64,000 nt of DNA from an uncultured Veillonellaceae bacterium (GCA_964638945.1 CAZXCC010000001.1:47945-111944); one strand, 5' to 3'. Shown: positions 5,787 to 28,719, numbered from the stretch's first letter. The notes: a model not told the origin generated them from the letters alone. Numbers and translations are program-made.

Positions 5787-5933
5787 TGTTTTGAAATGAA
5801 AATGATAAGTTGACCGCTGAAAATTGATGAAAAAATAAGTGGAATTCCAACCTTGCAATACAATCATACGGCGGACGAATGGCAATGAAGCCTGGCAAGA
5901 GATCTTGCGGGCTTTTTTGTTTGGAAGGCATAT

Positions 5934-5949
5934 TGGCACGGCTCTTGCA
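5934..5949 (+). promoter_or_regulatory. sigma-54 promoter TGGCACG-GCTC-TTGCA, near-perfect consensus, immediately upstream of the RBS/start of the first nicotinate cluster gene
   Basis: GG 5935-5936, GC 5947-5948; exact match to TGGCACG-N4-TTGCW. Confidence 0.75.
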
Positions 5950-5976
5950 TTGGTCTATAAAACGGAGGTGTGCACG

Positions 5977-8774: not shown

Positions 8775-8822
8775 TATCCGGGAGGCAGATTCCCGGCAAT
8801 CATGATAAGGAGAGTGACACAA

Positions 8823-9995: not shown

Positions 9996-10016
9996 GGAAA
10001 CGGGAGGTTTGGAACA

Positions 10017-11525
10017 ATGATCATTGTCAAGAAGGAACTCTGCAAGGCCTGCGGCTTATGTGTCAAGAACTGTCCGGCAAGCGCGGTCAAAGTCATAGAC
10101 AAATTGGCCGTGGTGCAGGAGAATTGCGTCAGTTGCGGCGTCTGCGTCCGTGTCTGCCCTTTTCAGGCAATCATGCGCGAAGTGGAAATTGCTGCAGGCG
10201 CAGTTTCTTGCCGTTCATGCCCGGTCCAATGCGAAATCAAGGCAGGGTTTGAAGGTGCATGCAAACGCTATAGCAACATCAACGGAAAATTGGTGCGAAA
10301 CCGTGAACTGGTACTGGAAAATACCCGGTCTCAGGTGCCGGACCGGACAATCCCGGATAAGCCTCTGATTACTGCCGTAGGTGCGGGTACAGAGTATCCC
10401 TGCTGCCGTCCGGCCCCTCATATTGTCGGTGAGACGATCGACGGCATCGATGTGGTGACCGTAGTGACGGAAGCTCCGCTCAGTTACAGCGGTATCAAGG
10501 TAAAGATTGACGCCAACCGCCACATCGGCGAAGAAGGCGCGAAGATATTCAGGGACGGTGCGCTCGTCGGCATGGTGGACACCGAAGAGTATGGATCAAA
10601 GATGATTTACATCGGCGGAGCGAATATTCTGAGCGGGAAGAATGGATTTGCCGCGGCCCGGACCATTGTCGAACTGGCGAATGAAGAACGAGTGACACTG
10701 CAGGTCGAAAAAGGAAGCAAGCTGGAACTGCAGGTCGGTCACGCACCAATCATTGACGGTGTTGCCGAAAAGAAAATGCGTGTTGGTTGCGGCAGTGCAA
10801 CCGTCGGTATGTTTGCACGTATCATGAGTCAGGCAGTGGATGAAGCCATCGTGCTGGACCATCATGTTATTGGACTTCTGTCGGAACACCGGGCGGGTGA
10901 AGAGGTTGGAATGCGCTGGAGCGGCGTTGTTCCAAACGGCAGAAAAAGTACAAGGGGTAGATATTTCGGGGAGCATGGGCATGGTTGGGGCGGCACTCAT
11001 ATCGAAAAGCCTCTGGATGCAGTCAAGTCTGTAGATATGAGCATCGCCAGACAGGGCATGAAAATATTGGTTACCGAAACTACCGGGCAAAAAGGCGCAT
11101 TGCTGGAAGTGCAAGCGGATGGCAGTGTGCGCGAGATTCCGATGACTCCGGATGCTCAGGCCGCTGTCAACATGATTGTCGACAATTGTGAGGAAGCCAG
11201 GGTATCTGCCGTTTATGTCGGCGGAACCGGCGGCAGTGCGAGAGCAGGCGTGACGACCTATCCCATCAAGCTTTCACGCGCCGTGCATGCAGGGGAAGCA
11301 AAGTTGACAATCGGCGGGGCCATGGCCTACATCCTTCCGGGAGGCGGCATAAATTTTCTGGTGGATGTGGAAAAAGTGGAACCGAAGGCTTTTACCTGGG
11401 TTCCGACTCCTGCAACAGTAGCGCCGGTTGAATATACGATGACCCGCCGCAAATATGAAGAAATCGGTGGACATGTCGAGTCCATCAAACCCCTCTCCAC
11501 GCTCAAAAAGGCGAACAAAAAATGA
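10017..11525 (+). CDS. hnr: 6-hydroxynicotinate reductase-like protein with N-terminal 2x[4Fe-4S] ferredoxin domain
   Basis: CKACGLCVKNCP and CVSCGVCVRVCP motifs plus additional Cys clusters; position and size consistent with Hnr of the E. barkeri pathway. Confidence 0.6.
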   Translation: MIIVKKELCKACGLCVKNCPASAVKVIDKLAVVQENCVSCGVCVRVCPFQAIMREVEIAAGAVSCRSCPVQCEIKAGFEGACKRYSNINGKLVRNRELVLENTRSQVPDRTIPDKPLITAVGAGTEYPCCRPAPHIVGETIDGIDVVTVVTEAPLSYSGIKVKIDANRHIGEEGAKIFRDGALVGMVDTEEYGSKMIYIGGANILSGKNGFAAARTIVELANEERVTLQVEKGSKLELQVGHAPIIDGVAEKKMRVGCGSATVGMFARIMSQAVDEAIVLDHHVIGLLSEHRAGEEVGMRWSGVVPNGRKSTRGRYFGEHGHGWGGTHIEKPLDAVKSVDMSIARQGMKILVTETTGQKGALLEVQADGSVREIPMTPDAQAAVNMIVDNCEEARVSAVYVGGTGGSARAGVTTYPIKLSRAVHAGEAKLTIGGAMAYILPGGGINFLVDVEKVEPKAFTWVPTPATVAPVEYTMTRRKYEEIGGHVESIKPLSTLKKANKK

Positions 11526-12355
11526 TCAGGGAATTGGGGCCGGGCAAGGTTGCGCTTGATTTTGGTCCTACCCAGATGAATATTCATGTTTCCGGCGACA
11601 ATGCCGGTACCGGCATTGCGAAAGAAGCAGCGGATTACGCAATAAAGCTGGTTACGGAACTGGCGGGTTTTAAAACGATTGCAGCCAGGCCGCAAAGCGA
11701 AATCGGCACGCTGGAGGATCTGCCTGTCGTGCTCCAGAGAATGATCGAGTCTGTCAGAAAAACCGGGGATACGGATCTGACCCCCATGGCTGCAGTTGCC
11801 GGAACTCTATCGGACATGACTGCAGACTGGCTTTTTGCCAGAGGCGTCTCGAAGGTTATCGTCAACAATGGCGGCGATATTGCGATAAGACTCTCGGGAG
11901 AACAACGAGCCACGGTTGGCATTGCACCGGCCTTGGGCATGCCGCCGACCCACGTTCTGCATATCGGTGCAGCCGATGGCATCGGCGGTGTGACAACAAG
12001 CGGTTCAGGCGGACGAAGTTTCACCAAAGGAATTGCCACCGCCGCCACCGTTGCGGCAAAAACGGCGTCGATAGCCGACGCCTGCGCCACAAGCATCGGC
12101 AACGCAACCTTTTCTCCCCATCCATCCATCCGCATGGCTAGAGCGGAAGAAATCGATCCATTGACTGACATCGCAGGGCACTGGGTGGTTCGGGACGTGG
12201 GAGAACTGCCGCAGGAAACGGTTCAGGCAGCTCTTGAAAACGGATGGATGAGGGCAAAAAGCTATTTGGACAGAGGGATCATCAAAGGATGCGTTATCTT
12301 TATCGGACAAGCTGGAGTGGTGCTGCCGGAAGGGCTAGTGACTCCCTTGCCGTAA
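11522..12355 (+). CDS. conserved hypothetical protein, Gly/Ala-rich, in nicotinate cluster (possible Hnr accessory)
   Basis: ORF 277 aa translationally coupled (ATGA) to hnr; no motif recognised. Confidence 0.45.
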   Translation: MIRELGPGKVALDFGPTQMNIHVSGDNAGTGIAKEAADYAIKLVTELAGFKTIAARPQSEIGTLEDLPVVLQRMIESVRKTGDTDLTPMAAVAGTLSDMTADWLFARGVSKVIVNNGGDIAIRLSGEQRATVGIAPALGMPPTHVLHIGAADGIGGVTTSGSGGRSFTKGIATAATVAAKTASIADACATSIGNATFSPHPSIRMARAEEIDPLTDIAGHWVVRDVGELPQETVQAALENGWMRAKSYLDRGIIKGCVIFIGQAGVVLPEGLVTPLP

Positions 12356-12376
12356 AAATTAAGAGGAGGGTATATT

Positions 12377-12961
12377 ATGGAACTGGAAATTCGTAAGATT
12401 GTAACTGTTGTGGAAGAAACCTGCAAGGAAGCCGGACGCAAACTGGAAAAACCGACGCGCAAAGCTGCGGCGATGGCTGTTGTTGCCAATCCGTATGCGG
12501 GGCAATATGTGGAAGACCTGAATCCGCTGATTGATGCCTGCCTGCCGCTCGGAGAGCTCTTGACCAAACGTGCAGTGGAAGCATTGGGCATTGCGCCTGA
12601 AAAAGTAGAAAGCTATGGCAAGGCGGCTATCGTAGGCATAAATGGCGAACTGGAGCATGCCGCGGCGCTGCTGCATCCCAAACTCGGGACACCGATCCGC
12701 GATAATGTCGGCGGAGGAAAGGCAATTCTGCCTTCAACCAAAAAAGTCGGTGGACCAGGAACGGCGATCGATGTATCACTCGGATTCAAAAACGCCGCAT
12801 ACGTGCGGACTCACTTCGATGCAATGGAAGTACGGATTGCCGATGCTCCACGGGACAATGAAATTGTCCTTATCGTTGCTGTGACTGATTCGGGCCGTCC
12901 GCTGGCGCGTGTGGGCGGATTGACTGTGGATCAGGTCAAAGGCGAAGACGGATTGCGCTAA
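12377..12961 (+). CDS. amino-acid-synthesis (AA_synth/DUF1185) family protein, function unknown
   Basis: N-terminal MELEIRKIVTVVEE... and length about 190 aa typical of that family (from memory). Confidence 0.5.
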   Translation: MELEIRKIVTVVEETCKEAGRKLEKPTRKAAAMAVVANPYAGQYVEDLNPLIDACLPLGELLTKRAVEALGIAPEKVESYGKAAIVGINGELEHAAALLHPKLGTPIRDNVGGGKAILPSTKKVGGPGTAIDVSLGFKNAAYVRTHFDAMEVRIADAPRDNEIVLIVAVTDSGRPLARVGGLTVDQVKGEDGLR

Positions 12962-12974
12962 ACAAAAAATATAG

Positions 12975-13007
12975 TTGCTAGAACAAGGAAATTCCTTGTT
13001 CTAGCAA
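12975..13007. other. perfect 15-bp stem / 3-nt loop hairpin (TTGCTAGAACAAGGA aat TCCTTGTTCTAGCAA) between cluster genes; U-run lies on the minus-strand side
   Basis: base pairing verified by eye, 15/15 pairs. Confidence 0.6.
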
Positions 13008-13024
13008 AATTGGGGGGAAGAAAG

Positions 13025-13912
13025 GTGCGTATCGGATTTATCGGTATCGGAGCCATGGGAAAACCGATGGCGCTGAACCTTCTAAAGGCTGGCCATGAAC
13101 TGTATGTTTTTGATGTCGTGGCAGCTGCGGTGGCAGACATGGTTGCTCAGGGGGGGCAGGCATGCACGTCGCCCAAAGAGCTTGCGCAGAAGACGGAAGC
13201 AGTTATTACAATGCTGCCCAATGCCAAGATTGTGGAAAGTACACTGACAGGTGAAAACGGGCTTTTAGCCGGCTCACGTCCCGGACAGGTTTTCATCGAC
13301 ATGAGCAGTGTCTCCGCTGGCAGTACGAAACTGATGGCCAAACTCGCCGGTGAAAAAGGGGTCGGCTATGTGGATGCACCGGTAAGCGGCGGGGTGGCTG
13401 GCGCTACGGCTGGAACACTGACCATCATGGTTGGGGGAAGTGTGGATGACGTTGCGAAAGTACAACCCATACTGCAGGCTATGGGGAAAAACATCCACCA
13501 TGTCGGAGAAGTGGGTGCGGGTGATTCCATCAAGGTCGTCAACAATCTGCTGCTCGGGATCAATATGGCAGCGGTTGCTGAAGCGTTGGTGCTCGGAGTG
13601 AAATCCGGCCTGTCGCCCCAGGTCATGCTTGATATCATCAAGGGGAGCTCCGGCCGAAGTTATGCGTTGGAGGCGAAGACTCCGGGCTTTATCCTGAAAA
13701 ATAATTTTGCAGCCGGATTTGCCATCGACCTGCAGTACAAGGATCTGGAACTGGCGGCCGAAACGGCAAAAAGTCTGGGAATGCCGCTTCCGCTGGGATC
13801 CATGGCGCAACAGATTTTTGAAATGGCCAGGGCCAAGGGACTGGGGCGCGAGGATATTTCAGCAGTGATCAAGGTGTGGGAAGAACTGGTCGGCGTGCAA
13901 GTGAGGGAATAG
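13025..13912 (+). CDS. hgd: 2-(hydroxymethyl)glutarate dehydrogenase-like (3-hydroxyisobutyrate dehydrogenase family, NAD-binding)
   Basis: GFIGIGAMGKPMALNL Rossmann motif; about 296 aa; cluster context. Confidence 0.75.
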   Translation: MRIGFIGIGAMGKPMALNLLKAGHELYVFDVVAAAVADMVAQGGQACTSPKELAQKTEAVITMLPNAKIVESTLTGENGLLAGSRPGQVFIDMSSVSAGSTKLMAKLAGEKGVGYVDAPVSGGVAGATAGTLTIMVGGSVDDVAKVQPILQAMGKNIHHVGEVGAGDSIKVVNNLLLGINMAAVAEALVLGVKSGLSPQVMLDIIKGSSGRSYALEAKTPGFILKNNFAAGFAIDLQYKDLELAAETAKSLGMPLPLGSMAQQIFEMARAKGLGREDISAVIKVWEELVGVQVRE

Positions 13913-13919
13913 AAGGTAG

Positions 13920-15344
13920 GTGCAGGGGATGGAGAAGATATATAAGGAATTAAAAGAAAAGAATTTGTTGCCGGGCCAGCTGACTATCGGTGACTGTATT
14001 GGTGTGGCCAAAACAGTCGGAACGAGTGTTGGTGAAGTGATCATTGCCGAAGCGATGGAAGTCGGCAAAATGACCCGGCAGGAAGTGCTGTCGGCCGTGA
14101 TGGCAAGTTTTTCTCACAATCTGTATGCGATAGAAATCGGTACAACAACTGGTTCCAGCTTTCTGATGGGCAACGCGGGGCGGGAACTGACACAGGGAGC
14201 TGCCCCGCAGATTGTGGAAGATACTTTCCTGAACAAGGTGCTGGGATTTACGATTGGGGCACAGGTGGGAAACCATTCGGTCGGTTTGCAGCCTTGCGCC
14301 GGAACTGGCGATTCCTGTACGTATTCGGGTTTTGTCAAAGCCATGTTGGAAGAGGTGGCCGATCAGGAGCTGATTGCCCGTGTTGCGGCTGTCATGCTGA
14401 AAATCGGTACGATATTTCGCGTGGGTAAAACATCAACCGGCTGTAATATGGAAGGATTTGGTGCAGGTTCCGCTGCTTCTGCGGCAGCGTTCATCGAACT
14501 AGCCGGCGGTACACCGGAACAGATGGAGAAGGCCATTGTCCTGGCCTTGTCACCAACGATCGCGGTTCCTTGTACCCCCAGGGTCATGGTGGCCGGAATT
14601 TGCGCCACGCATATCGGCGGTGGCGTAATGATCGGCAAACTGGCGGCGCAGCTTGCGATGCATACCTCCATCCCCATCACCGTTCCTGCAGATGTGATGA
14701 TCGCCATGGCGGCAGCCGTTCATCCGATATCCGCCAAACATGTGGTTCCCACAGTGATTCAGTACATGGAGCCTTTTTTCAAAACCAACCTGGCGGTAGA
14801 AGGCTATATTTCTCCGGAAATAAAGGCGGAGGAAAAGGAGCGGATCGATCAGACTATTGGTCATGCTCTTGCTGAAGCCCGAGAACTGGCCCGCAAATCC
14901 AACCCGATCGTCAAACCGTTCAGTGAGGCGGTTGTAGGCGGAAGCAGCCAAGCTGTCGGTTCCCCGACGAACGCGGCCCGGATTGCGCATTTCCTTGCCA
15001 AAGGCGAAGTGAAGAAAGTCAAAATCGAGCTGTATCCCGAATTATTTGCCAGACGCGGCATCAATGTGCCGGGCATCCTGATGGCGGCAATTTACGGCGC
15101 AGGGACGGATAACAGCAAACTGTATCGTGAAGTCATGGACAAAGTGAAGGCTGCGGGAATCGAAGTGGAAATCCTGCAGGCCAGCGAATCTCAGATGCAG
15201 CGGATTACCGTCGAAGCCAGTGAAAAGAACGGGATGGTGCAGACTCTCAATCGTGGCGGAGCCCGCCTGGTTCTGCAAAAAGCATCCGATTTGGCAGAAG
15301 CATTCCGGATTGCCAAGGACCTTGGCATTGAAACGGTCGAGTAG
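13920..15344 (+). CDS. hmd: 2-(hydroxymethyl)glutarate dehydratase-like (Fe-S L-serine dehydratase family, fused beta+alpha)
   Basis: serine dehydratase-like single-chain architecture 474 aa; cluster context. Confidence 0.7.
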   Translation: MQGMEKIYKELKEKNLLPGQLTIGDCIGVAKTVGTSVGEVIIAEAMEVGKMTRQEVLSAVMASFSHNLYAIEIGTTTGSSFLMGNAGRELTQGAAPQIVEDTFLNKVLGFTIGAQVGNHSVGLQPCAGTGDSCTYSGFVKAMLEEVADQELIARVAAVMLKIGTIFRVGKTSTGCNMEGFGAGSAASAAAFIELAGGTPEQMEKAIVLALSPTIAVPCTPRVMVAGICATHIGGGVMIGKLAAQLAMHTSIPITVPADVMIAMAAAVHPISAKHVVPTVIQYMEPFFKTNLAVEGYISPEIKAEEKERIDQTIGHALAEARELARKSNPIVKPFSEAVVGGSSQAVGSPTNAARIAHFLAKGEVKKVKIELYPELFARRGINVPGILMAAIYGAGTDNSKLYREVMDKVKAAGIEVEILQASESQMQRITVEASEKNGMVQTLNRGGARLVLQKASDLAEAFRIAKDLGIETVE

Positions 15345-15355
15345 GAGGAACGGTC

Positions 15356-16564
15356 GTGAATTTTATAGAAAAATATCTGGCTGCTGCGGCCGGTCTTGAA
15401 AAGGTAAGTGTAGGGCAAGATTTGCGCTGCCGGGTGGATCTGGCACTCAGCCATGACGTTACTGCGCCGATAGCCATTCAACAATTCGAACAGATTGGCA
15501 TCGACCATGTGTTTGATCCAGCCAAAGTGGTCCTGGTCATCGACCACATCTTTCCCGCATCGACCGTCCAGGCCCGGACTTCACATTGGATCATGAAAGA
15601 TTTTGCAGCAAAATTCGGTGTCACACTGTATAGCAAAGGGGAAGGCGTCTGCCACCAGCTCCTGTCGGAGCGGCATCGTTTGCAACCGGGGCAGATTCTG
15701 GTGGGGGCAGACTCACACACTTGTACAGCCGGCGGTTACGGCGTGATCGGAATCCCTGTCGGATCGACGGAACTGGCTGCTGCGATGGCGACCGGTACAA
15801 TCGACCTGGAAGTTCCACCTGTGGTCGAAGTCTTCATGACTGGCGCCCTGAATCCCGGCGTAAGCGGCAAGGACATCGTTCTGAGCCTGATCAAGCGTTT
15901 CGGCGTCGATGGGCTTACAGACAAGGCGGTTGTTTTTACTGGCCCGGGAATTACAGGAATTTCTACAGGGGAACGGATGACGATCTGTAATATGGGAATC
16001 GAGATGGGCGCAATGATTGCCTGCTTTGGAGAGGAAACCAAAGCGGAGGATGTTGCGGAAAGCATTCCGCTGGAGCTGGAAAAACTGGTTCCGCTTGCGG
16101 CCTGTCCGCATTCACCAGCCAATGTTCGCCCGGTTTCCGACCTGAAGGACGTATCGGTAACCCAGGTGGTGGTCGGCAGTTGTACGAACGGGAGACTGAA
16201 CGACATGGAAAAAGTAGTCGATGTGCTCAGAAACCATAAAGTTCATCCCGATGTAAACTGTCTGATAATCCCCGCATCGAAAAACATACTGGATGCGATG
16301 GAAGAACAAGGCTGGTGCAAAATTTTGCGCGATGCCGGCGCTGTGGTGGCAAATCCCGGTTGTGGCCCGTGTTTTGGCGCTCATCAGGGATTGGGCACGG
16401 AACGCGACGTGATCGTATCCACCACGAATCGTAATTTCCCAGGACGAATGGGGCACCGGACCGCGAATATCTATCTTGCTTCACCCGCTACGGCAGCTGC
16501 ATCGGCGGTGACCGGGAAAATTACCGAACCAGGTTCGCTGGCAGCCGGAGGTGATTTGAAATGA
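15356..16564 (+). CDS. dmdA: dimethylmaleate hydratase large subunit (aconitase/LeuC family)
   Basis: GADSHTCTAGG aconitase-family motif; GTG start after GGAGG. Confidence 0.75.
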   Translation: MNFIEKYLAAAAGLEKVSVGQDLRCRVDLALSHDVTAPIAIQQFEQIGIDHVFDPAKVVLVIDHIFPASTVQARTSHWIMKDFAAKFGVTLYSKGEGVCHQLLSERHRLQPGQILVGADSHTCTAGGYGVIGIPVGSTELAAAMATGTIDLEVPPVVEVFMTGALNPGVSGKDIVLSLIKRFGVDGLTDKAVVFTGPGITGISTGERMTICNMGIEMGAMIACFGEETKAEDVAESIPLELEKLVPLAACPHSPANVRPVSDLKDVSVTQVVVGSCTNGRLNDMEKVVDVLRNHKVHPDVNCLIIPASKNILDAMEEQGWCKILRDAGAVVANPGCGPCFGAHQGLGTERDVIVSTTNRNFPGRMGHRTANIYLASPATAAASAVTGKITEPGSLAAGGDLK

Positions 16565-17055
16565 AGACAATCAAGGGTCGTGTATGGGTTTTTGACGACA
16601 ATGTGGATACCGATCAGATACTGCCTGGCTATGCAATGGCCGAGGCTGCAGCTTCCCTGGGACGTTTTGCCATGGCTGGCAGCAAGATTCCGGATTTCTC
16701 CGGCAAGGTTCAAGCCGGTGACATTATTGTCGCAGGCAAAAACTTCGGCTGCGGTTCCAGTCGGGAGCAGGCGCCGGTTGCGCTGAAACTGGCAGGAGTC
16801 AGTCTGCTCATTGCTCCCTCTTTTGCCCGGATTTTTCGCCGGAATTCCATCAATATCGGATTGCCGGTGATGTTGGGAGATATTCGGGAGGAAGTCAAAA
16901 CAGGAGATATTATCGAAGTGGATATTGAAAGCGGCGTTATTGTCGCTGCGGAGAGAAAACTGTCAGCTCAACCTCTGGCGCCCAATGTGCTGGCAACGGT
17001 GCGGGCCGGCGGCCTGATCAACCGTGTCCGCCAAGAACTGGGTATTGCAAACTGA
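16561..17055 (+). CDS. dmdB: dimethylmaleate hydratase small subunit (LeuD-like)
   Basis: 164 aa LeuD-like swivel domain; ATGA overlap with dmdA. Confidence 0.75.
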
Positions 17056-17080
17056 ACGATATACTGCAGGAGGAACCAAA

Positions 17081-18928
17081 ATGCAAGAAAAAACCATGCG
17101 GATTATTACCGAGGACTATGACAGAGTAAAAGCATATTCGGAAACCTTTGCCGTTCCCATGCCGACCCTGGGCAAGGATGGATCGGTGGATGGTCTGCCG
17201 GCTCCATATCCGCGGGAAGTCTGCGGTGTCCAGCGCAGCGGCTACCGGATTTATGAACTGGCACAACAAGCTGAAAAAACAGGGATTCCTGTGCAGAATC
17301 CGATACTTGGGCGCAATACGGCGGAAGAAACCTATAAAGAATCGGTTGAAATGTATAATATGGCCGAAAAACTGGGCATCAAAATATTCCATTTTGTGCA
17401 CTCGGAAGCTACGCGCCATATCGATCCCTTGAACGGACGAGAACTGATCGAACAGTCGCGCGGCAAGGGCGGCATTACGCCGATGGGTGAACGAAAACTG
17501 GTGGAACTGGGCGGAGGCTCGATTCATCCGATGCGGATCAATGCAACAGGGGATACTCCGCATCTTTCGATCATCAACGCCCTGCTGGCCGGATTTGACG
17601 GAACGGACATCGGACCGGTCATTCATGTGCACTTCGGCGGCCGAGGCATCCATGACTACAAGACCAAAGTGGTAAACGGATTCCGCGCCTTGGAAATTTG
17701 TGCCGAGCACAATATGTTCGTGCAAATTGAGTCGCACAAGCACTTGAATAATATCGGCGGAACGGATGGGATGGCTCTGGCCATGTGTCTGCTGGCAGAA
17801 GGCTTGGGCGTTCTTGCCGGTCTGCCTCCGGAACTGAGCGCAGTGCAGATGAATGTGACAGGATTGAACTTGCTCGGAGATCTCGCATCAATGCGTGCCT
17901 TCAAGGAAACCATGTGGAGCAAGAGCCTGATCGTAGTGCCGGAAACCTTCCAGAATCCTCCGGGCGACCTGATTGCTGAATCGGCGCACTTTGCCCGGAT
18001 GGCGATTAGTGCAAAGCTTGGAGGCGCCCACTTCTACCGTCCGAAAGCAGCCGAGTCCGTGGGAATTCCCACTGGCGGCTCCATGGCAAAAGCGATCTGG
18101 GGAACACAAAACGTGTTCGAAAACACGGTGAAAGTGGAAATCCACGATCCGTACATCGAAGTCCGGAAAAATGAAATTCTTGATGAAGCCATGGCGGTGC
18201 TGGAAGGCGTTCTGGGCATCGGCCGTACGCTGGCGCCTGATGAAATCAACGAGAAATTCTGGCGCAAATATGACAAGGATGAACTGAGTGAAAAAATTGT
18301 CACTGCAGGCAAAGCCGGAATAATGGACTGCCCGCGCGCCGGCGGCTGGGATTTGAAACGCCATGTGCGAACGCACCGTGACAAAGACGGTATCAAACGA
18401 TATGTTCCGGGTTTCACTCCGTTGGGCGTGGATTCCGCACGTATGGCGATCACGACGGAACCGGTGGAAGTGCCGGAAGTGAAAAAACCTACCCGCAAGC
18501 AAAAAATGGTGCTGGCGACAGTTGGCGCCGATGCTCACGTCATGGGAATCAACATGATCAAGGAAGCTTTCGAAAAAGCCGGCTACGAGGTGATTTACCT
18601 CCGCGGCATGAACCTGCCGGAAACAGTGGCGGAAGTAGCGGCTGAAGCCAAGGCCGAGATTATTGGCATTACGAACCTTCTCGGGATGGGCCGCGAATTG
18701 TTCCCGAGGGTGCAGAAACGTCTGCAGGAACTGGGGATGAGCGATAAGGTCCTGCTCATCGCTGGGGGCCGGATTGCCGAAAAAGAAGAAGAACATGCCT
18801 ATTTTGAAGAAAAAATCGCCAAAGAAGGTCCGACTTTCCTCGGAGTGGAGAATTTCTTCGGGCCGGGCACCGATCCGGTCAAATGTGTCGAGTGGACCGC
18901 AAAAGCACTTGAAAGGAAGGGTCTGTAA
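17081..18928 (+). CDS. mgm: 2-methyleneglutarate mutase (adenosylcobalamin-dependent)
   Basis: C-terminal B12-binding domain with [12 protein letters not shown] (DxHxxG) motif; 615 aa, same as the E. barkeri enzyme; GGAGG RBS. Confidence 0.8.
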
Positions 18929-20061
18929 TGGGAGATATGCGTCGAATTCCCTGTGTAATTTTGCGTGGCGGCACAAGCAAAGGGATATATCTGAAATCCA
19001 ACCATCTGCCTCAGGATAAAGAAGCGCGGGACAAAGTCATTCTGGAGATTTTTGGCAGTCCGGATGTCCGACAGATTGACGGATTGGCCGGCGCCGACCC
19101 ATTGACAAGCAAAGTGGCAATCATTGGGCCGTCCACTCATCCCGGAGCCGATGTGGACTATACCTTTGGCCAGGTCAGCATCAACGCACCCTATATTGAC
19201 TATTCCGGAAACTGCGGCAATATTTCGTCGGGGGTGGGGCCGTTTGCAATCGACGAAGGTTTTGTCGCTGCGACCGGTTCCATGACCACAGTTCGGATTC
19301 ACAACACCAATACGGGAAAAATTCTGATTGCCGAAGTTCCGACGGAAGACGGTCTCGCAAAAGTAAACGGCGACTGCAAGATCGACGGAGTACCCGGTAC
19401 CGGCGCCCAAATCATGATGGACTTTTCCGGCACGGCGGGTTCGGTGACAAACAAACTGCTGCCGACAGGCAATCCTGTTGATACCATCAACACCAGCGCC
19501 GGCCCTTTGCAAATTTCGATCGTGGATGTGTCCAATCCCTGCGTGTTTGTCAGAGCAAAAGATGTGGGCATGAAAGGCGGCGAGACGCCCCAGGAAGTCA
19601 ACGGGAATCCGAAATTGCTGGGTCTCATGGAGGAAATCCGTGCCCAGGCCTGCGTGATGATCGGCATGGCGCCGGATGTGGCTACCGCCACAGCCAAGAG
19701 CCCGGCATTCCCAATGGTGGCCTATGTGTCCCCTGCGGCGGATTATGTTGATTTCACCACAGGCAAGACCATCAGCAAAGATCAGATCGATTTCATTTCC
19801 CGCATGATGTTCATGCAGGTGCTGCACAAAACCTACCCGGGAACCGGCACGGCATGTACCGGCGCAGCGGCGAAAATTCCGGGAACAATTGTCAACGAAG
19901 CAATCCCGCATATTGACTCCATCAAGATTATCCGCATCGGGCATCCGGCAGGAGTGATCGAGATTGAGGCCGCTTTTGAAAAAGGCGAGTTGTCAAGGGC
20001 TGCGTTTGCCCGAACGGCAAGGCGCATTATGGAAGGGTACGTCTACGTCAGAAATTCGTGA
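18928..20061 (+). CDS. mii: 3-methylitaconate delta-isomerase (PrpF family)
   Basis: PrpF-like N-terminus IPCVILRGGTSKG; 377 aa; TAATG overlap with mgm. Confidence 0.75.
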   Translation: MGDMRRIPCVILRGGTSKGIYLKSNHLPQDKEARDKVILEIFGSPDVRQIDGLAGADPLTSKVAIIGPSTHPGADVDYTFGQVSINAPYIDYSGNCGNISSGVGPFAIDEGFVAATGSMTTVRIHNTNTGKILIAEVPTEDGLAKVNGDCKIDGVPGTGAQIMMDFSGTAGSVTNKLLPTGNPVDTINTSAGPLQISIVDVSNPCVFVRAKDVGMKGGETPQEVNGNPKLLGLMEEIRAQACVMIGMAPDVATATAKSPAFPMVAYVSPAADYVDFTTGKTISKDQIDFISRMMFMQVLHKTYPGTGTACTGAAAKIPGTIVNEAIPHIDSIKIIRIGHPAGVIEIEAAFEKGELSRAAFARTARRIMEGYVYVRNS

Positions 20062-20083
20062 TTCATACGGGGAGTGAAAAGAC

Positions 20084-21520
20084 ATGAAGGCAAACCTTCT
20101 CGTATATGATGTCGGCAGCACCTACACCAAACTGACCGCTTTCCAGCTGGAAAAAGGCGTTCTGGATTATGTTGGCCGTTCCCAGTCCCCGACGACGATT
20201 CAGGATATTGAAATCGGTGTGCAGTCCGCACGGAGTTCGCTCGCGGAACAAGGGTTTGAAATCAGCCGGGATGCTGCTGTGTTTTCTACCAGCAGCGCAG
20301 CCGGCGGCCTCAGAATGGTGGCTCTTGGTTATATGCCGCGGGTTACGGCAAAAGCTGCCAAAGAAGTGGCCATGAGCGCCGGGGCCCGGGTGCTGGAAAT
20401 CGTCAGTTATGAAGATCCGCCGGAATATCGGCTGCAGGTACTTCGGGAAATCAAGCCGGATATCGTTCTCCTCGCTGGCGGCACGGATGGTGGCGATCAG
20501 GATTCCATGCTGGAAAATGCCCGGATCATCGTGCAATCAAAAATCAAGGCCGTCATCATCATTGCCGGGAATAAGGAAGCGCAGGGCGGAGTGGCGGAAA
20601 TCCTGAAACAGGGCGGAGTGGGATATGTCCGCGTGCCAAACGTCATGCCAACAATCCATGAGCTGAAAGTGAAGCCCGCGCGGGAGGCAATCCATGAACA
20701 GTTCATCAAACAGATTACTTTGGCAAAAGGATTAAATAAACTTCTTGATATCGTTTCCGACAAAAAGGTGACTCCGACGCCGGGGGCTGTTCTTTTGGGT
20801 GCAGAATTGCTGGCAAAAGGAACTTTTGAACAGGACGGTGTTGGAGAGGTCCTTGTCATTGACATTGGCGGCGCCACAACCGATATCCATTCCGTGTTGC
20901 CTGACCTTGATAAACTGACAATCGAGGAAAAAGGTCTGGTCATAACGAATGAAAAGCAACCTTCCTACCGGACCGTTGAAGGCAATCTGGGTCTCAGGAT
21001 CAGTGCCACAGGCATCGTGGAGACAGTGGGACCCCAGGGGGTTTTGGCCAAAATCGGCAAAAAGGAGGAAGAGCTGCAGGAAAGACTGACGGAGTACACG
21101 GCTTTCCTGGAAAAGAACCCCGAGCACATCAGCCAGTCTGAAGAAGAAAAGGAATTTGACCTGGCTCTTGCTATTGCCGCCATCGAGGTGGCGCTAAAAA
21201 GACATGCCGGCTATATTTCTCAGGAATTCAATCCGGTTATGGGCATTATTCCGGGAACACCTATCGGCCGAGATCTTCGCCGTGTCAGGCATGTGATCGC
21301 CGTGGGCGGAATCTTTACCCACCGAACTCCGGCAGAAAAATTATATGTATTGGAGCAGGCTTTTGCCAATCCGGGAATCTCGTTGCTTCCTGATGAACCC
21401 CATTTTATAGTGGATGAGCAGTATCTGCTCTACGCGATAGGTGTTCTCGGGCAAAAATACAGTGACGCCTGCCTGGATTTTGCCAGAAGGCAGTTCAATA
21501 TCGAAAAAAAAGGAGACTGA
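20084..21520 (+). CDS. GlmL/MutL-like ASKHA-fold protein, probable B12-mutase reactivating chaperone
   Basis: N-terminal LLVYDVGSTYTKLTAF actin-like phosphate-1 motif; about 480 aa like glutamate mutase GlmL; adjacent to the B12 mutase. Confidence 0.5.
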   Translation: MKANLLVYDVGSTYTKLTAFQLEKGVLDYVGRSQSPTTIQDIEIGVQSARSSLAEQGFEISRDAAVFSTSSAAGGLRMVALGYMPRVTAKAAKEVAMSAGARVLEIVSYEDPPEYRLQVLREIKPDIVLLAGGTDGGDQDSMLENARIIVQSKIKAVIIIAGNKEAQGGVAEILKQGGVGYVRVPNVMPTIHELKVKPAREAIHEQFIKQITLAKGLNKLLDIVSDKKVTPTPGAVLLGAELLAKGTFEQDGVGEVLVIDIGGATTDIHSVLPDLDKLTIEEKGLVITNEKQPSYRTVEGNLGLRISATGIVETVGPQGVLAKIGKKEEELQERLTEYTAFLEKNPEHISQSEEEKEFDLALAIAAIEVALKRHAGYISQEFNPVMGIIPGTPIGRDLRRVRHVIAVGGIFTHRTPAEKLYVLEQAFANPGISLLPDEPHFIVDEQYLLYAIGVLGQKYSDACLDFARRQFNIEKKGD

Positions 21521-21521
21521 C

Positions 21522-22394
21522 ATGAAAAAAACAACGATGCTGAGACAATTGCTGGCTCAGAAAAACATTCTGGTGGCGCCGGGAGCGCATGACGCTCTTT
21601 CGGCAAAAATTGTTGCACAGGCTGGCTTTGATGCGGTCTATTTTACCGGGTACGGTCAGGCGGCAAGCCACTTGGGCGGACCTGACGTCGGACTCATGAC
21701 GATGACCGAAATGGTAATGCGTGCCCGTAATTTTGCGGCTGCAGTCGATATTCCGGTGATTGCCGACGGCGACACGGGGTTCGGCAATGTAATCAACGTG
21801 ATCCGTACAGTAAGGGAATATGAAGCAGCCGGGGTGGCGGCCATACAGCTTGAAGATCAGGTTGCACCGAAGAAATGCGGTCACATGACAGGCAGGCAGG
21901 TTGTGGCGCTGGAAGAAATGGTCGGAAAGATCAAGGCGGCGGTTTCGGCCAGGCAGGATCCTGATTTCGTGATCATCGCCCGTACAGACGCCCGAACGAA
22001 CCTGGGAATTGAAGAAGCGCTGCGTCGAGGGAAGGCGTTTGCCGAAGCCGGTGCGGATGTTCTGTTCATCGAGTCTCCGGAAAGTCTGGAAGAAATGAAA
22101 TTGATCACATCAAGCTTCAATGTTCCTGTATTGGCGAATATGGTCGAAGGGGGCCGTACTCCGCTTATGACGGCAAAAGAACTGCAGGAACTGGGCTACG
22201 GCCTGGTCATCTTCCCCACTTCATCCACATATATTACGGCGCAGGCGGTCACCCGATGCATGCAGGAATTGAAGACCAACGGGACAACAAAAGCGTTGCT
22301 GAACGAGATGATCCCGTTTCAGCAGTTTAACGAACTGGTTGGTTTGCCTGGGGTGCGCGAGATCGAAAACAAATTCCTGCCGCCTCAAAAATAG
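21522..22394 (+). CDS. dml: 2,3-dimethylmalate lyase (isocitrate lyase / PEP mutase superfamily)
   Basis: methylisocitrate-lyase-like sequence, 290 aa; ATG at 21522 with AAAGGAG RBS (the ORF-track start at 21441 is upstream of this). Confidence 0.75.
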   Translation: MKKTTMLRQLLAQKNILVAPGAHDALSAKIVAQAGFDAVYFTGYGQAASHLGGPDVGLMTMTEMVMRARNFAAAVDIPVIADGDTGFGNVINVIRTVREYEAAGVAAIQLEDQVAPKKCGHMTGRQVVALEEMVGKIKAAVSARQDPDFVIIARTDARTNLGIEEALRRGKAFAEAGADVLFIESPESLEEMKLITSSFNVPVLANMVEGGRTPLMTAKELQELGYGLVIFPTSSTYITAQAVTRCMQELKTNGTTKALLNEMIPFQQFNELVGLPGVREIENKFLPPQK

Positions 22395-22413
22395 CCCTGG
22401 AAGGAGGCTGCAT

Positions 22414-23295
22414 ATGAGTTACATGTATTACGCGCCTAGAACCATGTCGGAACTTTTGCAAGTACTGGCCGAAAAGAAGGATGGCGCAATGATCATTGCG
22501 GGTGGAACGGATGTTATGGTCGAAATCCGTGCAGGACATGCGCCACAGAGTCTGGTCGACATTACGAAGATTCCTGAAATGAAAGGAATCAGGCGTGAAG
22601 GGGACAGGATCCACATCGGGCCTGCAACGACTTTTACAGATATCGTGGAATCAAAAATAATCCGTGAGAGTGCTTTTGTGCTGGCTCAGGCGGCTGTATC
22701 TGTTGGTTCTCCCCAGATCCGAAACCGCGGGACTGTTGGCGGAAACATTGTCAAAGGCTCGCCTGCCGCCGACTCGGTTCCGGCTCTGGTAGCGCTCGAA
22801 GCCAGGCTTCGGCTTGTATCCGGGGCTGGTGAAAGGGAACTGGGTATCGAAGAGTTTCTCGTCGGCGTTTGTAAAACAGCCATCCTTCCTGGCGAAGTAT
22901 TGGTCGATATTTCATTCAAGGCTCTGGCCCCAAAGACCGGCAGCGCTTTTGTCAAACTGGGCCGAAGGAATGCGCTCGCTATTTCTCGGGTGAGCGTGGC
23001 CGCAATCATTGGTTACGACGAAGTAGAAATGACCTGTACTGACTGTCGAATTTCCGTGGGCTCTGTGGCAAAAAATCCGTTTCGGGTCAGAACGGCCGAA
23101 GATATCTGGCAGAGCTGCAGTCTTACACATAGCAACCGGGACCTCTGCGTCGAAGCGGCGCTCAGGGAGATTAGCGTGACGCTTGGAGAACGGGCTTCGG
23201 CCGTGTATAAGAAACAGGCGGGTCCTGCCATCATCAGGCGCGCTGTCGATTCGGCGCTGGGACAGGTTTTTGGCGGATGGGAACAAGTTCTCTAA
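22414..23295 (+). CDS. ndhF: nicotinate dehydrogenase FAD-binding subunit (CoxM/XdhB-like)
   Basis: FAD-binding AGGTDVMV motif; 293 aa; GGAGG RBS. Confidence 0.8.
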   Translation: MSYMYYAPRTMSELLQVLAEKKDGAMIIAGGTDVMVEIRAGHAPQSLVDITKIPEMKGIRREGDRIHIGPATTFTDIVESKIIRESAFVLAQAAVSVGSPQIRNRGTVGGNIVKGSPAADSVPALVALEARLRLVSGAGERELGIEEFLVGVCKTAILPGEVLVDISFKALAPKTGSAFVKLGRRNALAISRVSVAAIIGYDEVEMTCTDCRISVGSVAKNPFRVRTAEDIWQSCSLTHSNRDLCVEAALREISVTLGERASAVYKKQAGPAIIRRAVDSALGQVFGGWEQVL

Positions 23296-23348
23296 GCTGA
23301 AGATAGAGACATATTTCCATAGTTTTCTCTAATATAGTTTTTGGACAT

Positions 23349-23362
23349 CATTCGGCCGAATG
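23349..23362. promoter_or_regulatory. perfect 14-bp palindrome CATTCGGCCGAATG upstream of MFS transporter gene; candidate operator
   Basis: read directly. Confidence 0.4.
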
Positions 23363-23447
23363 AAAGGAGTGATTTAGCGCCGCAGAAATGAACAGCAATT
23401 CACTACCAGCAGTAATTATTTCGTAATAAAAAAGGGGGCTCTCAGAG

Positions 23448-24806
23448 ATGTCAACAAAGACAATCACCGCCGAAGAACTAGTCGGCCGGATGGAACGGCT
23501 GCCGTTCTCACGGATGCACAAGAAGATTTATTCCCTGACAGCGGCAGGGTATCTGTTTGATGCATTCGACATTATGCTGCTCAGTTTCGTCATGCCCGCA
23601 CTGGCAAAAGACCTTGGCCTGACGCCGGTGCAAATCGGACTGTCTTTCAGTGTATCCTTCCTGGGCATGTTCGGTGGAGCGCTTTCCGGGGGTATACTGG
23701 CCGACATGTTTGGCAGGTTGAAAATTTTCAAAGTCACGTTGCTTACTTTTTCTGCGGCAACTTTCTTGACCGGCTTCGTAAATAGCTATGAAATGCTGCT
23801 GGTGTTGCGTTTCTTGACTGGTCTCGGTCTGGGGGCGGAACAGCCTGTCGTATTTACATATAACAGTGAAATGATGCCCAGTGCATACCGCGGTCGTCTC
23901 AACGGCATGACTGAAGCTCTCTGGGGCGGCGGAGTGCTGACGGCAGCTGCAGTCTCGCTTTTGCTGGTTCCAACTTACGGCTGGCGCGCAGCGTTTTTCG
24001 CCGGCGTAATTCCTGCCCTGCTGGTCTGGTTCCTGCGCAAAGGAATTCCTGAGTCTCCCCGCTGGTACGTCGTAAAAGGCGATTACAAAGCGGCGGAAGA
24101 ACATCTCTCGCAACTCGAACAAGCCATTGAAGCGGAAACGGGCACGAAACTTCCTGCAGTTCAGGAAGTTGCCAAGGTGCAATCGCAAACCGGCAACAAG
24201 ATGTCTGTCATCTTTAAGCCGACCTATATCCGCCGCACGATGATGCTGTGGATTCTCTGGTTCTTCCTCATGTTCGGGTACTGGGGCCTGAACACCTGGC
24301 TGCCGACGTTGCTGAAAAATTCGGGTTATTCGACATTTGCTGCCATAGGGTATGTGTTGGTTATGAACCTGGTCTGGATTCCGAGCGGTCTGTTTGGTTC
24401 CTATCTTGCGGATAAGATAGGTCGAAAAGTTCCGATTGTGGTGTACCTGATCCTTGCTGGAATCACAGGCGTTCTGTATGGCTGGGCCCTGACCCACAAG
24501 ATGCCGGAGACGATCATGCTGGCGTGCGGTTCGCTATCGGTACTGTTTTTGGCGGGTGCTTACTCTGTCGTATATGCTTATACACCGGAGAACTATCCGA
24601 CAGAAGTGCGCGGCACAGGAACCGGAACGGCGATGTCCTGGGGTCGTATCGGCGGTATTTTGGCGCCTACGGTCGTCGGTTATCTGTATCCGATCATTGG
24701 CCTTTACATGACACTGACAGTCGTCAGTTTGGGCTTTGTAGCCGCAGCTTTGGGAGTTGCATTCCTTGGGACAGAGACGAAAGGCAAAAACCTGGAATCT
24801 TGCTGA
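23448..24806 (+). CDS. MFS transporter (aromatic acid / niacin NiaP-like subfamily), candidate nicotinate importer
   Basis: 12 predicted TM segments, MFS signature GRLKIFK; adjacency to nicotinate cluster. Confidence 0.7.
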   Translation: MSTKTITAEELVGRMERLPFSRMHKKIYSLTAAGYLFDAFDIMLLSFVMPALAKDLGLTPVQIGLSFSVSFLGMFGGALSGGILADMFGRLKIFKVTLLTFSAATFLTGFVNSYEMLLVLRFLTGLGLGAEQPVVFTYNSEMMPSAYRGRLNGMTEALWGGGVLTAAAVSLLLVPTYGWRAAFFAGVIPALLVWFLRKGIPESPRWYVVKGDYKAAEEHLSQLEQAIEAETGTKLPAVQEVAKVQSQTGNKMSVIFKPTYIRRTMMLWILWFFLMFGYWGLNTWLPTLLKNSGYSTFAAIGYVLVMNLVWIPSGLFGSYLADKIGRKVPIVVYLILAGITGVLYGWALTHKMPETIMLACGSLSVLFLAGAYSVVYAYTPENYPTEVRGTGTGTAMSWGRIGGILAPTVVGYLYPIIGLYMTLTVVSLGFVAAALGVAFLGTETKGKNLESC

Positions 24807-25728: not shown

Positions 25729-28719
25729 TTGAAGTATGTTCAGAGAAGTACTCTGGAAAAGCGGGGAAGGATTTTGAAGAAATTTGTTGATTTGAAGGCG
25801 CGTTTTTCGGGAGTCCATGACCTGATCAAATTCAGGGTTACGGAAATACTATTGATATCTACTGCATATGACGGTTTTGTCCTCGAGGAGGACGGGCAGC
25901 TCACAGAACAGATTTATCATCAGTTCAACGATCTCAGCATTCCGTACATACCCAGGATTCATCGGGTGTCAAACAAGGACGAGGCACTGACCGAACTGCT
26001 GACAAGGCAGATCCATCTGATCATTACCATGTCCCGCATCAATGACACAGGTGCATTTGAAATTGAAACGGCCATACATGAAGCCTACCCGGAAATCCCG
26101 ATCGTGATGCTTTCTTACGATCGGCTGACACCGGAAATGATCGCCCAGATCAGGGATATTTCCTGCATCAACAGGGTATTCCACTGGTCGGGTGACAGCA
26201 AGATTCTGCTGGCCATCATAAAATACATAGAAGACCAGCAGAATGTTGAGGCGGACAGCAGGCTGGGAGTACAGGCAATCCTTTTGGTTGATGATTCTCC
26301 CATCTATTACTCGCAGATTTTGCCGATCATATATACGGAAATCCTGACACAGACGCGGTACCTGGTATTGCATGCCATGAATACCAGCCATGGCCTGCTT
26401 CGTGTTCGTCTGCGGCCGAAGATTCTTCTTGCGGAAACTTATGAAGAAGCAATGTCTATTATCAGCACTTACAGATACAATTTGCTGGGAGTAATTTCCG
26501 ATGTGAGATTTCCCAAGGATGGAGTGCTCAATCCATCCGCCGGTTTTGAACTTGCGCAAAGTGTGAGGGAAATGATCAGCGATTTTCCAGTGCTGCTCCA
26601 TTCGGAAGAGCAGGAAAACGCAGACAAAGCCAAAGCACTAAACATGCATTTTTTGAACAAAAACTCGCCTAACCTGCTGCATGATTTGCGCAACTTCATA
26701 ATGGAAAATTACGGTTTCGGCTCATTTGTGTTCAAGTATCCGGATGGCAGAATTATTGCAGAGGCGTCTGATATTACAAGCCTGGAAAGAATAATTCGTG
26801 ATCTCCCGGATGAGAGCCTGTATTATCACGCTGCCAATAATCATTTCTCACGCTGGTTCCGTGCCCGAACCGAATTTGAAGTAGCAGACAAATTGCGGCT
26901 GGTGGGTACGGAAGAACTGAGCAACATCGCGGACATCCGAACCTATATTCTAAAAGTGCTGAATGATTATTTTCAAAAGTATCAATCAGGCGTAATTCTG
27001 GATTTTGAAGGGCTAGCCAAAAAAGATATGGAGAATGCTTTCATTAAGCTTGGGACGGGTTCTTTGGGCGGAAAGGCCAGAGGAATTGCGTTTATTAATT
27101 CCATGATTGCGAAAGCCTGTCTGACGGATAAATACGAAGATATCAAAGTGAAGGTTCCCCGCTCATTCGTGATTTGCAGCGATGTTTTTGAAAAATTCAT
27201 CGAAGAGAATAACTTGTATCTCTTTTTTGCCAGCGCCCCGCGAGAGGAAGAGATTGCCCGAAAATTTACGGAAAGCGCTTTGCCGGCCACGATTCAGGAA
27301 AATCTGCGGGTTTTGACACAATATATAAAATGTCCGCTCGCAGTGCGGTCCTCAAGTATTTTGGAAGACTCACGCGTATTGCCTTTCGCTGGCATCTATA
27401 ATACCTACGTGGTTCCAAACAGTCATGAAGATCCGGAAATACGCTTTAAACAACTTTCGGACGCGGTAAAACTGGTGTATGCCTCGGTTTTTTACGCATC
27501 TCCTGTTCAATATGCAAAGAATGCGGATATTCGAATTGAAGAGGAAAAAATGGCTGTGCTGATCCAGGAACTCGTCGGAGAACGGTACGGTGACCTCTAT
27601 TATCCTGTCATTTCCGGCGTGGCCCAGTCCTATAACTTTTATCCGTATTATCCGATGAAACCGGAAGAAGGGACGGTAAGCCTGGCACTTGGACTGGGCA
27701 GGGCAATCGTTGACGGGGAACGTGTTTACAGATTTTCGCCGGATCATCCCAAACTGAACCCGCTATTTGCAAGTCCGGATGAATATATGAAAAAATCTCA
27801 AAACGCATTTTATGCCATTAATCTCAATACATCCGCCGATATCACTCTTCGGGCGGACGAAGGCTACACCTATGAAAAATTGTCCATATCCCAGGCAAAC
27901 AAAGATCAATCACTGGAATATATCGGCAGTACATATTCGATTGAAAATGACTGCATCTATGACAATATATATCAACCAGGTCCCAAACTGGTGACATTTG
28001 CTCCAATTCTCAAATATAACAGGCTGCCGCTTACGCAAATTATTAAAGATTTGCTCAGTCTGGGAAAACAATCCTTTGGTGCAAATGTTGAAATTGAATT
28101 TGCCGTCAATATTCCCAAGGATCCGAACAAGCCCAAAGAATTTAATTTCTTGCAAATCAGGCCGATGGTTGTCGGTAGAGAAGCACTTCAGGTCAATCTT
28201 GACGACAGGGAGGAAGCTCTGTGTTTCAGTTGCCGTACCATTGGCAATGGACTTCATAAAAATATCCATGACATAATTTTTGTCAATCCTGAGACGTTTA
28301 CCATACAGGACAGCGTTCAAATCGCGGATGAGATCGGTGAGCTCAACAGCATTCTGTTCAAGGAAGGGCGACGCTGCATACTCATCGGGTTTGGCCGAAT
28401 GGGAACATCGGACCGGTGGTTGGGGATTCCATTGACATGGGCGCAAATGTCTCAGGCACAAATTATCGTGGAAGTCGACCGGAAGGATTTGCGACCCGAA
28501 CCTTCGCTGGGGAGTCACTTCTTTCATAATCTGACCGCCACCAATATGGGATATTTCCACATCCAATACGACAATGAAGCGGAAGGGAAGATAGATTGGG
28601 ATTGGCTGACCAGGCAGCCGATTCTGGAGCAGACGAAACATGTGAAACTGGTTCGAAGGGAGGCGGAATTCAAGGCCAAACTGGATGGGAGAAACTTTAA
28701 AGGAATCGTGTACAAATAA
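25729..28719 (+). CDS. multidomain signalling protein: two receiver-like (REC) domains (first degenerate) then PEP synthase/pyruvate phosphate dikinase N-terminal (PPDK_N, ATP-grasp nucleotide-binding) domain; start uncertain
   Basis: ILLVDDSPIYY receiver motif; LGTGSLGGKARGIAFINSM resembles the PPDK_N ATP-binding region; C-terminal GFGRMGTSDRWLGIP resembles the phospho-His mobile-domain motif but lacks His. Confidence 0.6.
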   Translation: MKYVQRSTLEKRGRILKKFVDLKARFSGVHDLIKFRVTEILLISTAYDGFVLEEDGQLTEQIYHQFNDLSIPYIPRIHRVSNKDEALTELLTRQIHLIITMSRINDTGAFEIETAIHEAYPEIPIVMLSYDRLTPEMIAQIRDISCINRVFHWSGDSKILLAIIKYIEDQQNVEADSRLGVQAILLVDDSPIYYSQILPIIYTEILTQTRYLVLHAMNTSHGLLRVRLRPKILLAETYEEAMSIISTYRYNLLGVISDVRFPKDGVLNPSAGFELAQSVREMISDFPVLLHSEEQENADKAKALNMHFLNKNSPNLLHDLRNFIMENYGFGSFVFKYPDGRIIAEASDITSLERIIRDLPDESLYYHAANNHFSRWFRARTEFEVADKLRLVGTEELSNIADIRTYILKVLNDYFQKYQSGVILDFEGLAKKDMENAFIKLGTGSLGGKARGIAFINSMIAKACLTDKYEDIKVKVPRSFVICSDVFEKFIEENNLYLFFASAPREEEIARKFTESALPATIQENLRVLTQYIKCPLAVRSSSILEDSRVLPFAGIYNTYVVPNSHEDPEIRFKQLSDAVKLVYASVFYASPVQYAKNADIRIEEEKMAVLIQELVGERYGDLYYPVISGVAQSYNFYPYYPMKPEEGTVSLALGLGRAIVDGERVYRFSPDHPKLNPLFASPDEYMKKSQNAFYAINLNTSADITLRADEGYTYEKLSISQANKDQSLEYIGSTYSIENDCIYDNIYQPGPKLVTFAPILKYNRLPLTQIIKDLLSLGKQSFGANVEIEFAVNIPKDPNKPKEFNFLQIRPMVVGREALQVNLDDREEALCFSCRTIGNGLHKNIHDIIFVNPETFTIQDSVQIADEIGELNSILFKEGRRCILIGFGRMGTSDRWLGIPLTWAQMSQAQIIVEVDRKDLRPEPSLGSHFFHNLTATNMGYFHIQYDNEAEGKIDWDWLTRQPILEQTKHVKLVRREAEFKAKLDGRNFKGIVYK

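Follow-up and report, generated by a model that had tools for sequence, protein, structure and literature searches.

A GlmL/MutL-family protein encoded with 2-methyleneglutarate mutase in an uncultured Veillonellaceae bacterium as candidate cofactor-exchange chaperone of the mutase

A stretch of 64,000 nt from an uncultured Veillonellaceae bacterium (GCA_964638945.1 CAZXCC010000001.1:47945-111944), here called the window, encodes a protein of the GlmL/MutL family within the operon of the adenosylcobalamin (B12)-dependent 2-methyleneglutarate mutase (Mgm). This protein and its counterparts next to other mgm genes, to which we refer as MgmL, form a discrete and strictly syntenic clade apart from GlmL and from the Or-4 proteins of ornithine degradation. 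Based on analogy with other helpers of B12 enzymes we consider it fairly likely that MgmL is an ATP-driven chaperone dedicated to Mgm, which would exchange damaged cofactor for fresh adenosylcobalamin. The first-pass annotation of this DNA had proposed a dedicated reactivase; ‘dedicated’ fits the separate mutase-linked clade that we describe here, while ‘reactivase’ is still a function that we infer.

Membership of the GlmL/MutL family, which the first-pass annotation had claimed and for which it had suggested a profile search, is established by two models. The Pfam profile PF13941 (MutL) aligned over nearly its full length (residues 6-468 on profile positions 2-447 of 450) with 463.5 bits (E=9e-139; curated cut-off 27 bits), and TIGR01319 (GlmL family) gave 312.1 bits, which is above its cut-off of 204. 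PF13941 was the only match in a Pfam scan at E<=0.01, in which neither the diol dehydratase reactivase families (DdrA/DdrB) nor EutA were hit. The best equivalog match was NF040745, the model for GlmL of methylaspartate mutase, with 419.2 bits and thus under its cut-off of 475, and the Or-4 model NF040744 was matched with 303.9 bits (cut-off 600). The scores on NF040745 of eight other Mgm-linked proteins, taken from distant taxa, were 351-407 bits, again all under the cut-off. Ten non-Mgm representatives of the family were scanned as well, of which six scored 504-648 bits on NF040745, one passed the Or-4 model and three fitted neither. Since none of the current NCBI curated equivalogs covers the Mgm-linked clade, its members are automatically named ‘glutamate mutase L’, which is misleading for these proteins.

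The clade is also established by sequence distance. When 1.84 billion representative proteins were scanned without a profile, 1,813 relatives were retrieved at E<=0.001, with a sharp break in identity between a small group at 54% or higher (only two or three of them near full length) and the remainder at 42% or lower. A neighbour-joining tree was built from 215 sequences. One of its bipartitions, with 100/100 bootstrap support, unites all Mgm-linked proteins and the representatives with at least 54% identity; identity to any outsider was at most 44%. The nearest named relatives of the window protein come from Anaeroselena (83%) and Sporomusa (80%).

Synteny with mgm was examined in 80 genomic loci from other genomes that encode Mgm relatives, which were searched with the cluster proteins. 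In all 76 loci that reach far enough downstream, the GlmL-like gene directly follows mii, the gene for 3-methylitaconate isomerase, and the four loci without it all end at a contig edge before that position. Absence of the gene from other mgm loci, which the first-pass annotation had named as a possible refutation, was therefore seen at none of the checkable loci. Two of the 76 copies are incomplete, one being cut by the end of the locus (L034) and the other broken by a stop codon (L061). The latter, from a Clostridiaceae metagenome-assembled genome (MAG), stops after 43 codons (11118-11249) while similarity continues past the stop, and is a possible pseudogene or assembly artefact. The order mgm-mii-GlmL-like gene, with mii between the other two in all loci, was found in Bacillota, Desulfobacterota, Spirochaetota and Planctomycetota. 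The taxa include Sporomusaceae, Peptococcaceae, Desulfitobacterium, Desulfosporosinus, Moorella, Lachnospiraceae and Tissierellales, as well as Desulfobulbaceae, Adiutrix, Bilophila, one Treponema MAG and two Planctomycetaceae MAGs. A reverse lookup of two clade members found in the protein search, both 61% identical to the window protein, gave the order hgd-hmd-mgm-mii-X-dml, in which X is the GlmL-like gene and dml encodes 2,3-dimethylmalate lyase. The gene is kept with mgm-mii where dml and the dimethylmalate dehydratase genes dmdAB were not found nearby (L017, L018 and L036), and also where another gene replaces dml downstream (L056 and L069). It is therefore mgm-mii, rather than the remaining pathway, that the gene is linked to. 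The Treponema and Planctomycetaceae MAGs (L045, L077 and L078) carry the mgm-mii-GlmL-like block with several other cluster genes and a Mgm of 65-71% identity, which suggests horizontal spread or possibly reflects binning errors.

In the window the local gene order is mgm-mii-GlmL-like gene-dml, all on the + strand (Table 1). The first-pass annotation had placed the gene adjacent to the mutase; it does lie in the same operon, but mii is in between and Mgm is 1.15 kb upstream. The genes are closely packed: the stop codon of mii (20059-20061) precedes the GlmL-like open reading frame (ORF) by a gap of 22 nt, and the ATG of dml at 21522 is a single base beyond its stop, with the ribosome-binding site of dml (AAGGAG) inside the 3' end of the GlmL-like ORF. 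In the explanation that we favour, the GlmL-like gene would be co-transcribed with the mutase gene. Scanned for promoters and terminators, the operon showed about as many candidates as shuffled controls, and none between mgm and dml was convincing. The cluster is flanked by one gene for a histidine/aromatic ammonia-lyase and two for sigma-54-dependent activators (514-2076, 2127-3725 and 30575-32062). The nicotinate genes may thus be under sigma-54 control, which would account for the missing sigma-70-like promoters in the scan.

The neighbour was taken as a true 2-methyleneglutarate mutase because it shares 68% identity over 604 residues with Mgm of the Eubacterium barkeri locus and because several of its homologues, which are likewise 615 amino acids (aa) long, carry this name in the database. 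D484, H486 and G489 of the protein are invariant in the Mgm alignment. It is the sole protein with a B12-binding domain in the window, in which we found no GlmE, separate GlmS, glutamate mutase or second GlmL-like gene. The rest of the window also contained no adenosyltransferase or other B12-handling genes. The mutase ORF (17018-18925) has a weak match (E=1.7e-4) to a profile made from GlmE catalytic subunits, which hints at a distant kinship between the substrate-binding parts of both enzymes.

For the sister subfamilies, the genomic company was analysed in 80 metagenomic loci that encode family members other than the Mgm-linked ones, with neighbours counted within 4 kb. An ORF with a B12-binding domain together with GlmE was present in 46 loci and GlmE only in another four (GlmE in 50 loci in total), while ten loci had a B12-domain ORF without GlmE, two of which are aminomutases of the OAM type (OAM_dimer plus B12-binding domain). 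Loci with glmS and glmE usually also encode methylaspartate ammonia-lyase, citramalate lyase and mesaconase. NCBIfam labels the sister subfamilies as accessory proteins, one for methylaspartate mutase and the other for ornithine degradation, and the B12 enzymes of these subfamilies share the B12-binding domain only. What GlmL, Or-4 and the Mgm-linked clade have in common is thus a B12 enzyme and not the chemistry of the pathway. Family genes adjoin OAM_dimer and B12-binding proteins (ornithine/lysine-type aminomutases) in L096 (2535-5594) and L110 (3150-5600), and after the L110 protein, of 816 aa, comes a 4HBT thioesterase-like ORF. Other family members are unusually long: P0281 (600 aa), in which an N-terminal TetR-type DNA-binding region is fused to a GlmL equivalog, and proteins of 724 aa (L084, 5188-7362) and 846 aa (L143, 1391-3931).

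The actin/acetate-kinase-like phosphate-binding motif recognized by the first-pass annotation is intact; it occupies residues 9-16 within the quoted sequence LLVYDVGSTYTKL (residues 5-17), and the other two ASKHA motifs are intact as well. Their conservation is established by an alignment of 52 clade members, in which D9, G11, S12, T13, T15 and K16 of the phosphate-1 motif, D260, G262, G263, A264, T265, T266 and D267 of the phosphate-2 motif and G408 and G409 of the adenosine motif are invariant. Across the other subfamilies this also applies to G, S, T and T of the first motif, to the same second motif and to the equivalent GG of the third. Since neither the clade nor the other subfamilies vary in these three motifs, MgmL is probably an active nucleotide-binding protein. 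The alignment contained no cysteine among its invariant or near-invariant columns, and the Pfam scan gave no iron-sulfur (Fe-S) or ferredoxin domain. Seven residues are conserved in the Mgm-linked clade only (H192, H204, which is Arg elsewhere, E281, E282, N289, Q292 and E343) and are candidates for client recognition.

An AlphaFold2 model from 52 homologues (mean pLDDT 81, pTM 0.76) has an ASKHA core, with residues ~77-183 inserted into the first lobe as five beta-alpha units and a helical region at residues ~273-400. The insert is predicted to be flavodoxin-like, and its GGTDGG and AGN loops are invariant family-wide. Foldseek related the model to Hsp70 nucleotide-binding domains, PilM and sugar kinases, with probabilities of ~1 but low TM-scores. 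Neither the protein nor the 52-member profile found anything significant in the PDB, where no chain is related by sequence, and no solved structure of the GlmL/MutL family was found. A derivation of the insert from B12-binding domains was considered and rejected, since hhalign gave 1-16% probability vs 99.1% when the Mgm B12 domain was compared with GlmS as control. Judged by these profiles, the resemblance of the insert to B12 domains is one of common fold only. No conserved small ORF was found between mii and dml.

How MgmL might act can be proposed by analogy, as the best explanation of its family and context. Mgm is a radical enzyme and would occasionally lose the adenosyl group, which leaves a tightly bound inactive cobalamin. 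MgmL would bind the holoenzyme in this dead state and, by cycling through ATP binding and hydrolysis, would pry the B12-binding domain off the substrate barrel. The damaged cofactor could then exit and fresh adenosylcobalamin could bind. MgmL itself would perform no redox chemistry and would work as a soluble ASKHA (actin/Hsp70-type) ATPase. In this proposal we infer that Mgm is the client, that the effect depends on ATP and that cofactor is exchanged.

Several known systems can be compared to MgmL. DdrAB and GdrAB of diol and glycerol dehydratase and EutA of ethanolamine ammonia-lyase rid B12 enzymes of damaged cofactor in an ATP-dependent way (PMC10356863), and they have been grouped with the GlmL/MutL family in the actin/ASKHA superfamily (PMC5597319). 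By analogy, these factors are probably the working model for MgmL, but DdrA/DdrB has two subunits, of which the small one mimics a client subunit, whereas MgmL is a single chain with a fused insert. With regard to the client, the closest class are the base-off/His-on B12 carbon-skeleton mutases, for which the job proposed for MgmL is done by MeaB/MMAA, the G-protein chaperones of methylmalonyl-CoA mutase (PMC10356863); unlike MgmL these are P-loop GTPases of an unrelated fold. Within its own family, MgmL resembles GlmL (NF040745) in the Pfam and TIGRFAM assignment, in length, in the invariant ATP-binding and GGTDGG/AGN motifs and in being encoded with a B12 carbon-skeleton mutase. However, GlmL is at most about 42% identical to the window protein and belongs to a separate clade. 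Its gene lies between glmS and glmE, and a protein of its own forms the B12 subunit, whereas the client of MgmL would have a fused B12 domain and the MgmL gene is set apart from the client gene by mii. Or-4 (NF040744) is of the same family and also paired with a B12 enzyme, but its client is an aminomutase that depends on both pyridoxal phosphate (PLP) and B12.

The same synteny, clade and motif evidence would fit a loading or gatekeeping chaperone, which takes over adenosylcobalamin from an adenosyltransferase, passes it to apo-Mgm and bars inactive cobalamins, in the way of the G-protein MeaB/MMAA on methylmalonyl-CoA mutase but with ATP in place of GTP. B12 mutases with this kind of B12 domain do use chaperones of this sort (PMC10356863), but the window has no adenosyltransferase or other B12-handling gene and we consider this function rather unlikely. 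The present data fit loading as well as repair, and both may be one and the same role. A reductive activator similar to RACo, which serves the corrinoid iron-sulfur protein, or to the HgdC/BcrAD-type ‘archerases’, in which ATP drives the reduction of enzyme-bound cob(II)alamin, seems very improbable. The RACo and HgdC-type proteins couple Fe-S ligands to an ASKHA ATPase, and neither such ligands nor cysteines are conserved in MgmL. It is hardly credible that the protein is an ordinary GlmL which serves glutamate mutase and is located here by chance, although its best equivalog match is NF040745 and many database copies are automatically named ‘glutamate mutase L’. Its 419 bits stay below the cut-off of 475, whereas true GlmL representatives reach 504-648, GlmS and GlmE are missing from the window, the clade is separate at 100/100 and synteny with mgm is universal. 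Clade and context data together refute this option.

Some observations in the wider family do not fit a B12-related function. Neither a B12-domain ORF nor GlmE was detected in 20 of the 80 non-Mgm loci, which calls for caution about the whole family. About ten of these 20 follow a Cys/Met-type PLP enzyme, and some of the 20 are on short contigs. The PLP enzyme of Cys/Met metabolism directly precedes the family gene in L088, L091, L097, L103, L117, L131, L134, L148, L154 and L160, which have no B12-binding gene within 4 kb and are at odds with the picture of a B12 mutase helper. An AI-2E-type transporter is located downstream in L088, and also in L090, where no PLP gene was called. MgmL could have a role in the nicotinate pathway that is unrelated to B12, such as a kinase-like enzyme or a regulator acting on an intermediate, or as partner of Mii. 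Many sugar and acid kinases are ASKHA proteins, and synteny by itself cannot tell Mgm from Mii. However, the nine enzymatic steps of the pathway as known from E. barkeri have already been given to other cluster genes. Moreover, sister subfamilies in the chemically unrelated pathways of glutamate and ornithine share only the B12 enzyme. A B12-unrelated role therefore seems improbable, and cofactor exchange on Mgm is the function that we propose for MgmL.

An orthologue is present in E. barkeri (WP_090245336 / SDX95646; L068, 13021-14463), with 51% identity. Its UniRef name is ‘Putative repair enzyme for 2-methyleneglutarate mutase’, as given by the depositors, and presumably originates from the 2006 submission of the E. 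barkeri gene cluster. The gene is reportedly called mgmL in that organism. The statement of the first-pass annotation that no such factor had been described for this mutase does not hold, since the idea of a repair enzyme is already on public record and the window gene is an ordinary orthologue. Both proteins have the same position (mgm-mii-X-dml), clade and proposed function and are near-equal in length (480 vs 478 aa). The loci differ in the position of dmdAB, which is downstream of mgm in E. barkeri and upstream of it in the window. The functional idea itself is reasonable and has been strengthened by the present analysis.

Table 1. Coordinates of the GlmL-like gene, its motifs and the surrounding nicotinate-fermentation genes, counted from the first nucleotide of the window
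Feature	Coordinates	Strand	Details
Nicotinate dehydrogenase subunits	5839-8774 (three) and 22339-23295 (FAD subunit)		
Enamidase	8802-9995		
6-Hydroxynicotinate reductase	10017-11525		
ApbE-like gene	11522-12355		Within cluster
PF06684 (‘Amino acid synthesis’) gene	12377-12961		Within cluster
2-(Hydroxymethyl)glutarate dehydrogenase and dehydratase	13010-15344		
Dimethylmalate dehydratase (dmdAB)	15356-17055		
2-Methyleneglutarate mutase (Mgm), presumed client	17081..18928	+	615 aa
Mgm B12-binding domain PF02310	18503..18799	+	GADAHxxG base-off/His-on motif; Pfam match
3-Methylitaconate isomerase (Mii), PrpF family	18928..20061	+	PF04303, 416 bits; between mgm and GlmL-like gene
Shine-Dalgarno-like GGGAG	20070..20074	+	9 nt 5' of the ATG of the GlmL-like ORF; read from sequence
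GlmL/MutL-family ORF, Mgm-linked subfamily (‘MgmL’)	20084..21520	+	ATG start, 478 aa; PF13941, TIGR01319, clade membership
ASKHA phosphate-1 motif DVGSTYTK	20108..20131	+	Residues 9-16
Inserted flavodoxin-like alpha/beta domain	20312..20632	+	Residues ~77-183; predicted
ASKHA phosphate-2 motif DIGGATTD	20861..20884	+	Residues 260-267
ASKHA adenosine motif VGGIF	21302..21316	+	Residues 407-411
2,3-Dimethylmalate lyase (Dml), PEP mutase/isocitrate lyase family	21522..22394	+	PF13714, 187 bits
MFS transporter	23448-24806		

According to domain matches, the GlmL-like ORF is part of a complete cluster for anaerobic nicotinate fermentation of the E. barkeri type (5839-24806; Table 1). The enzyme names follow the E. 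barkeri pathway in combination with the domain matches. The flavin adenine dinucleotide (FAD) subunit of nicotinate dehydrogenase is encoded 14 kb away from the other three subunits. The ApbE-like gene (31-81% identity) and the PF06684 gene (48-91%) recur in most of the 80 mgm loci, and we know of no nicotinate-pathway step that has been assigned to either of them. Elsewhere in the window, a 955-aa ORF (39386-42253) had no Pfam match, and a 996-aa ORF (25729-28719) contained a PPDK_N domain (phosphoenolpyruvate (PEP)-utilising, ATP-binding) and a weak receiver-like region.

The present analysis sharpens the hypothesis for MgmL in three ways: the proteins form a discrete syntenic clade, no equivalog covers them, and they combine an ASKHA core with a flavodoxin-like insert without redox ligands. 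The residual interest lies in the mis-annotation of the Mgm-linked clade and in the mechanism of the GlmL/MutL family. The latter has ~1,800 cluster representatives at 50% identity, and yet our literature searches found no experimental work on the function of GlmL/MutL or of the Mgm-linked gene. Reviews call the family reactivases, and the papers that do so refer for support to studies of diol dehydratase or of the glutamate mutase mechanism. Tentatively, and with a good deal of doubt, the GlmL family could be seen as a third, independently evolved class of B12-enzyme reactivases besides DdrAB/EutA and the MeaB-type G-proteins. Such a reactivase would be a single chain, whose flavodoxin-like insert docks in place of or against the B12-binding domain of the client and expels the damaged cofactor, with client-specific lineages such as GlmL, Or-4, MgmL and others. 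If this is true, MgmL and Mgm, with a single-chain client, would be the simplest system for demonstrating the mechanism of the GlmL family.
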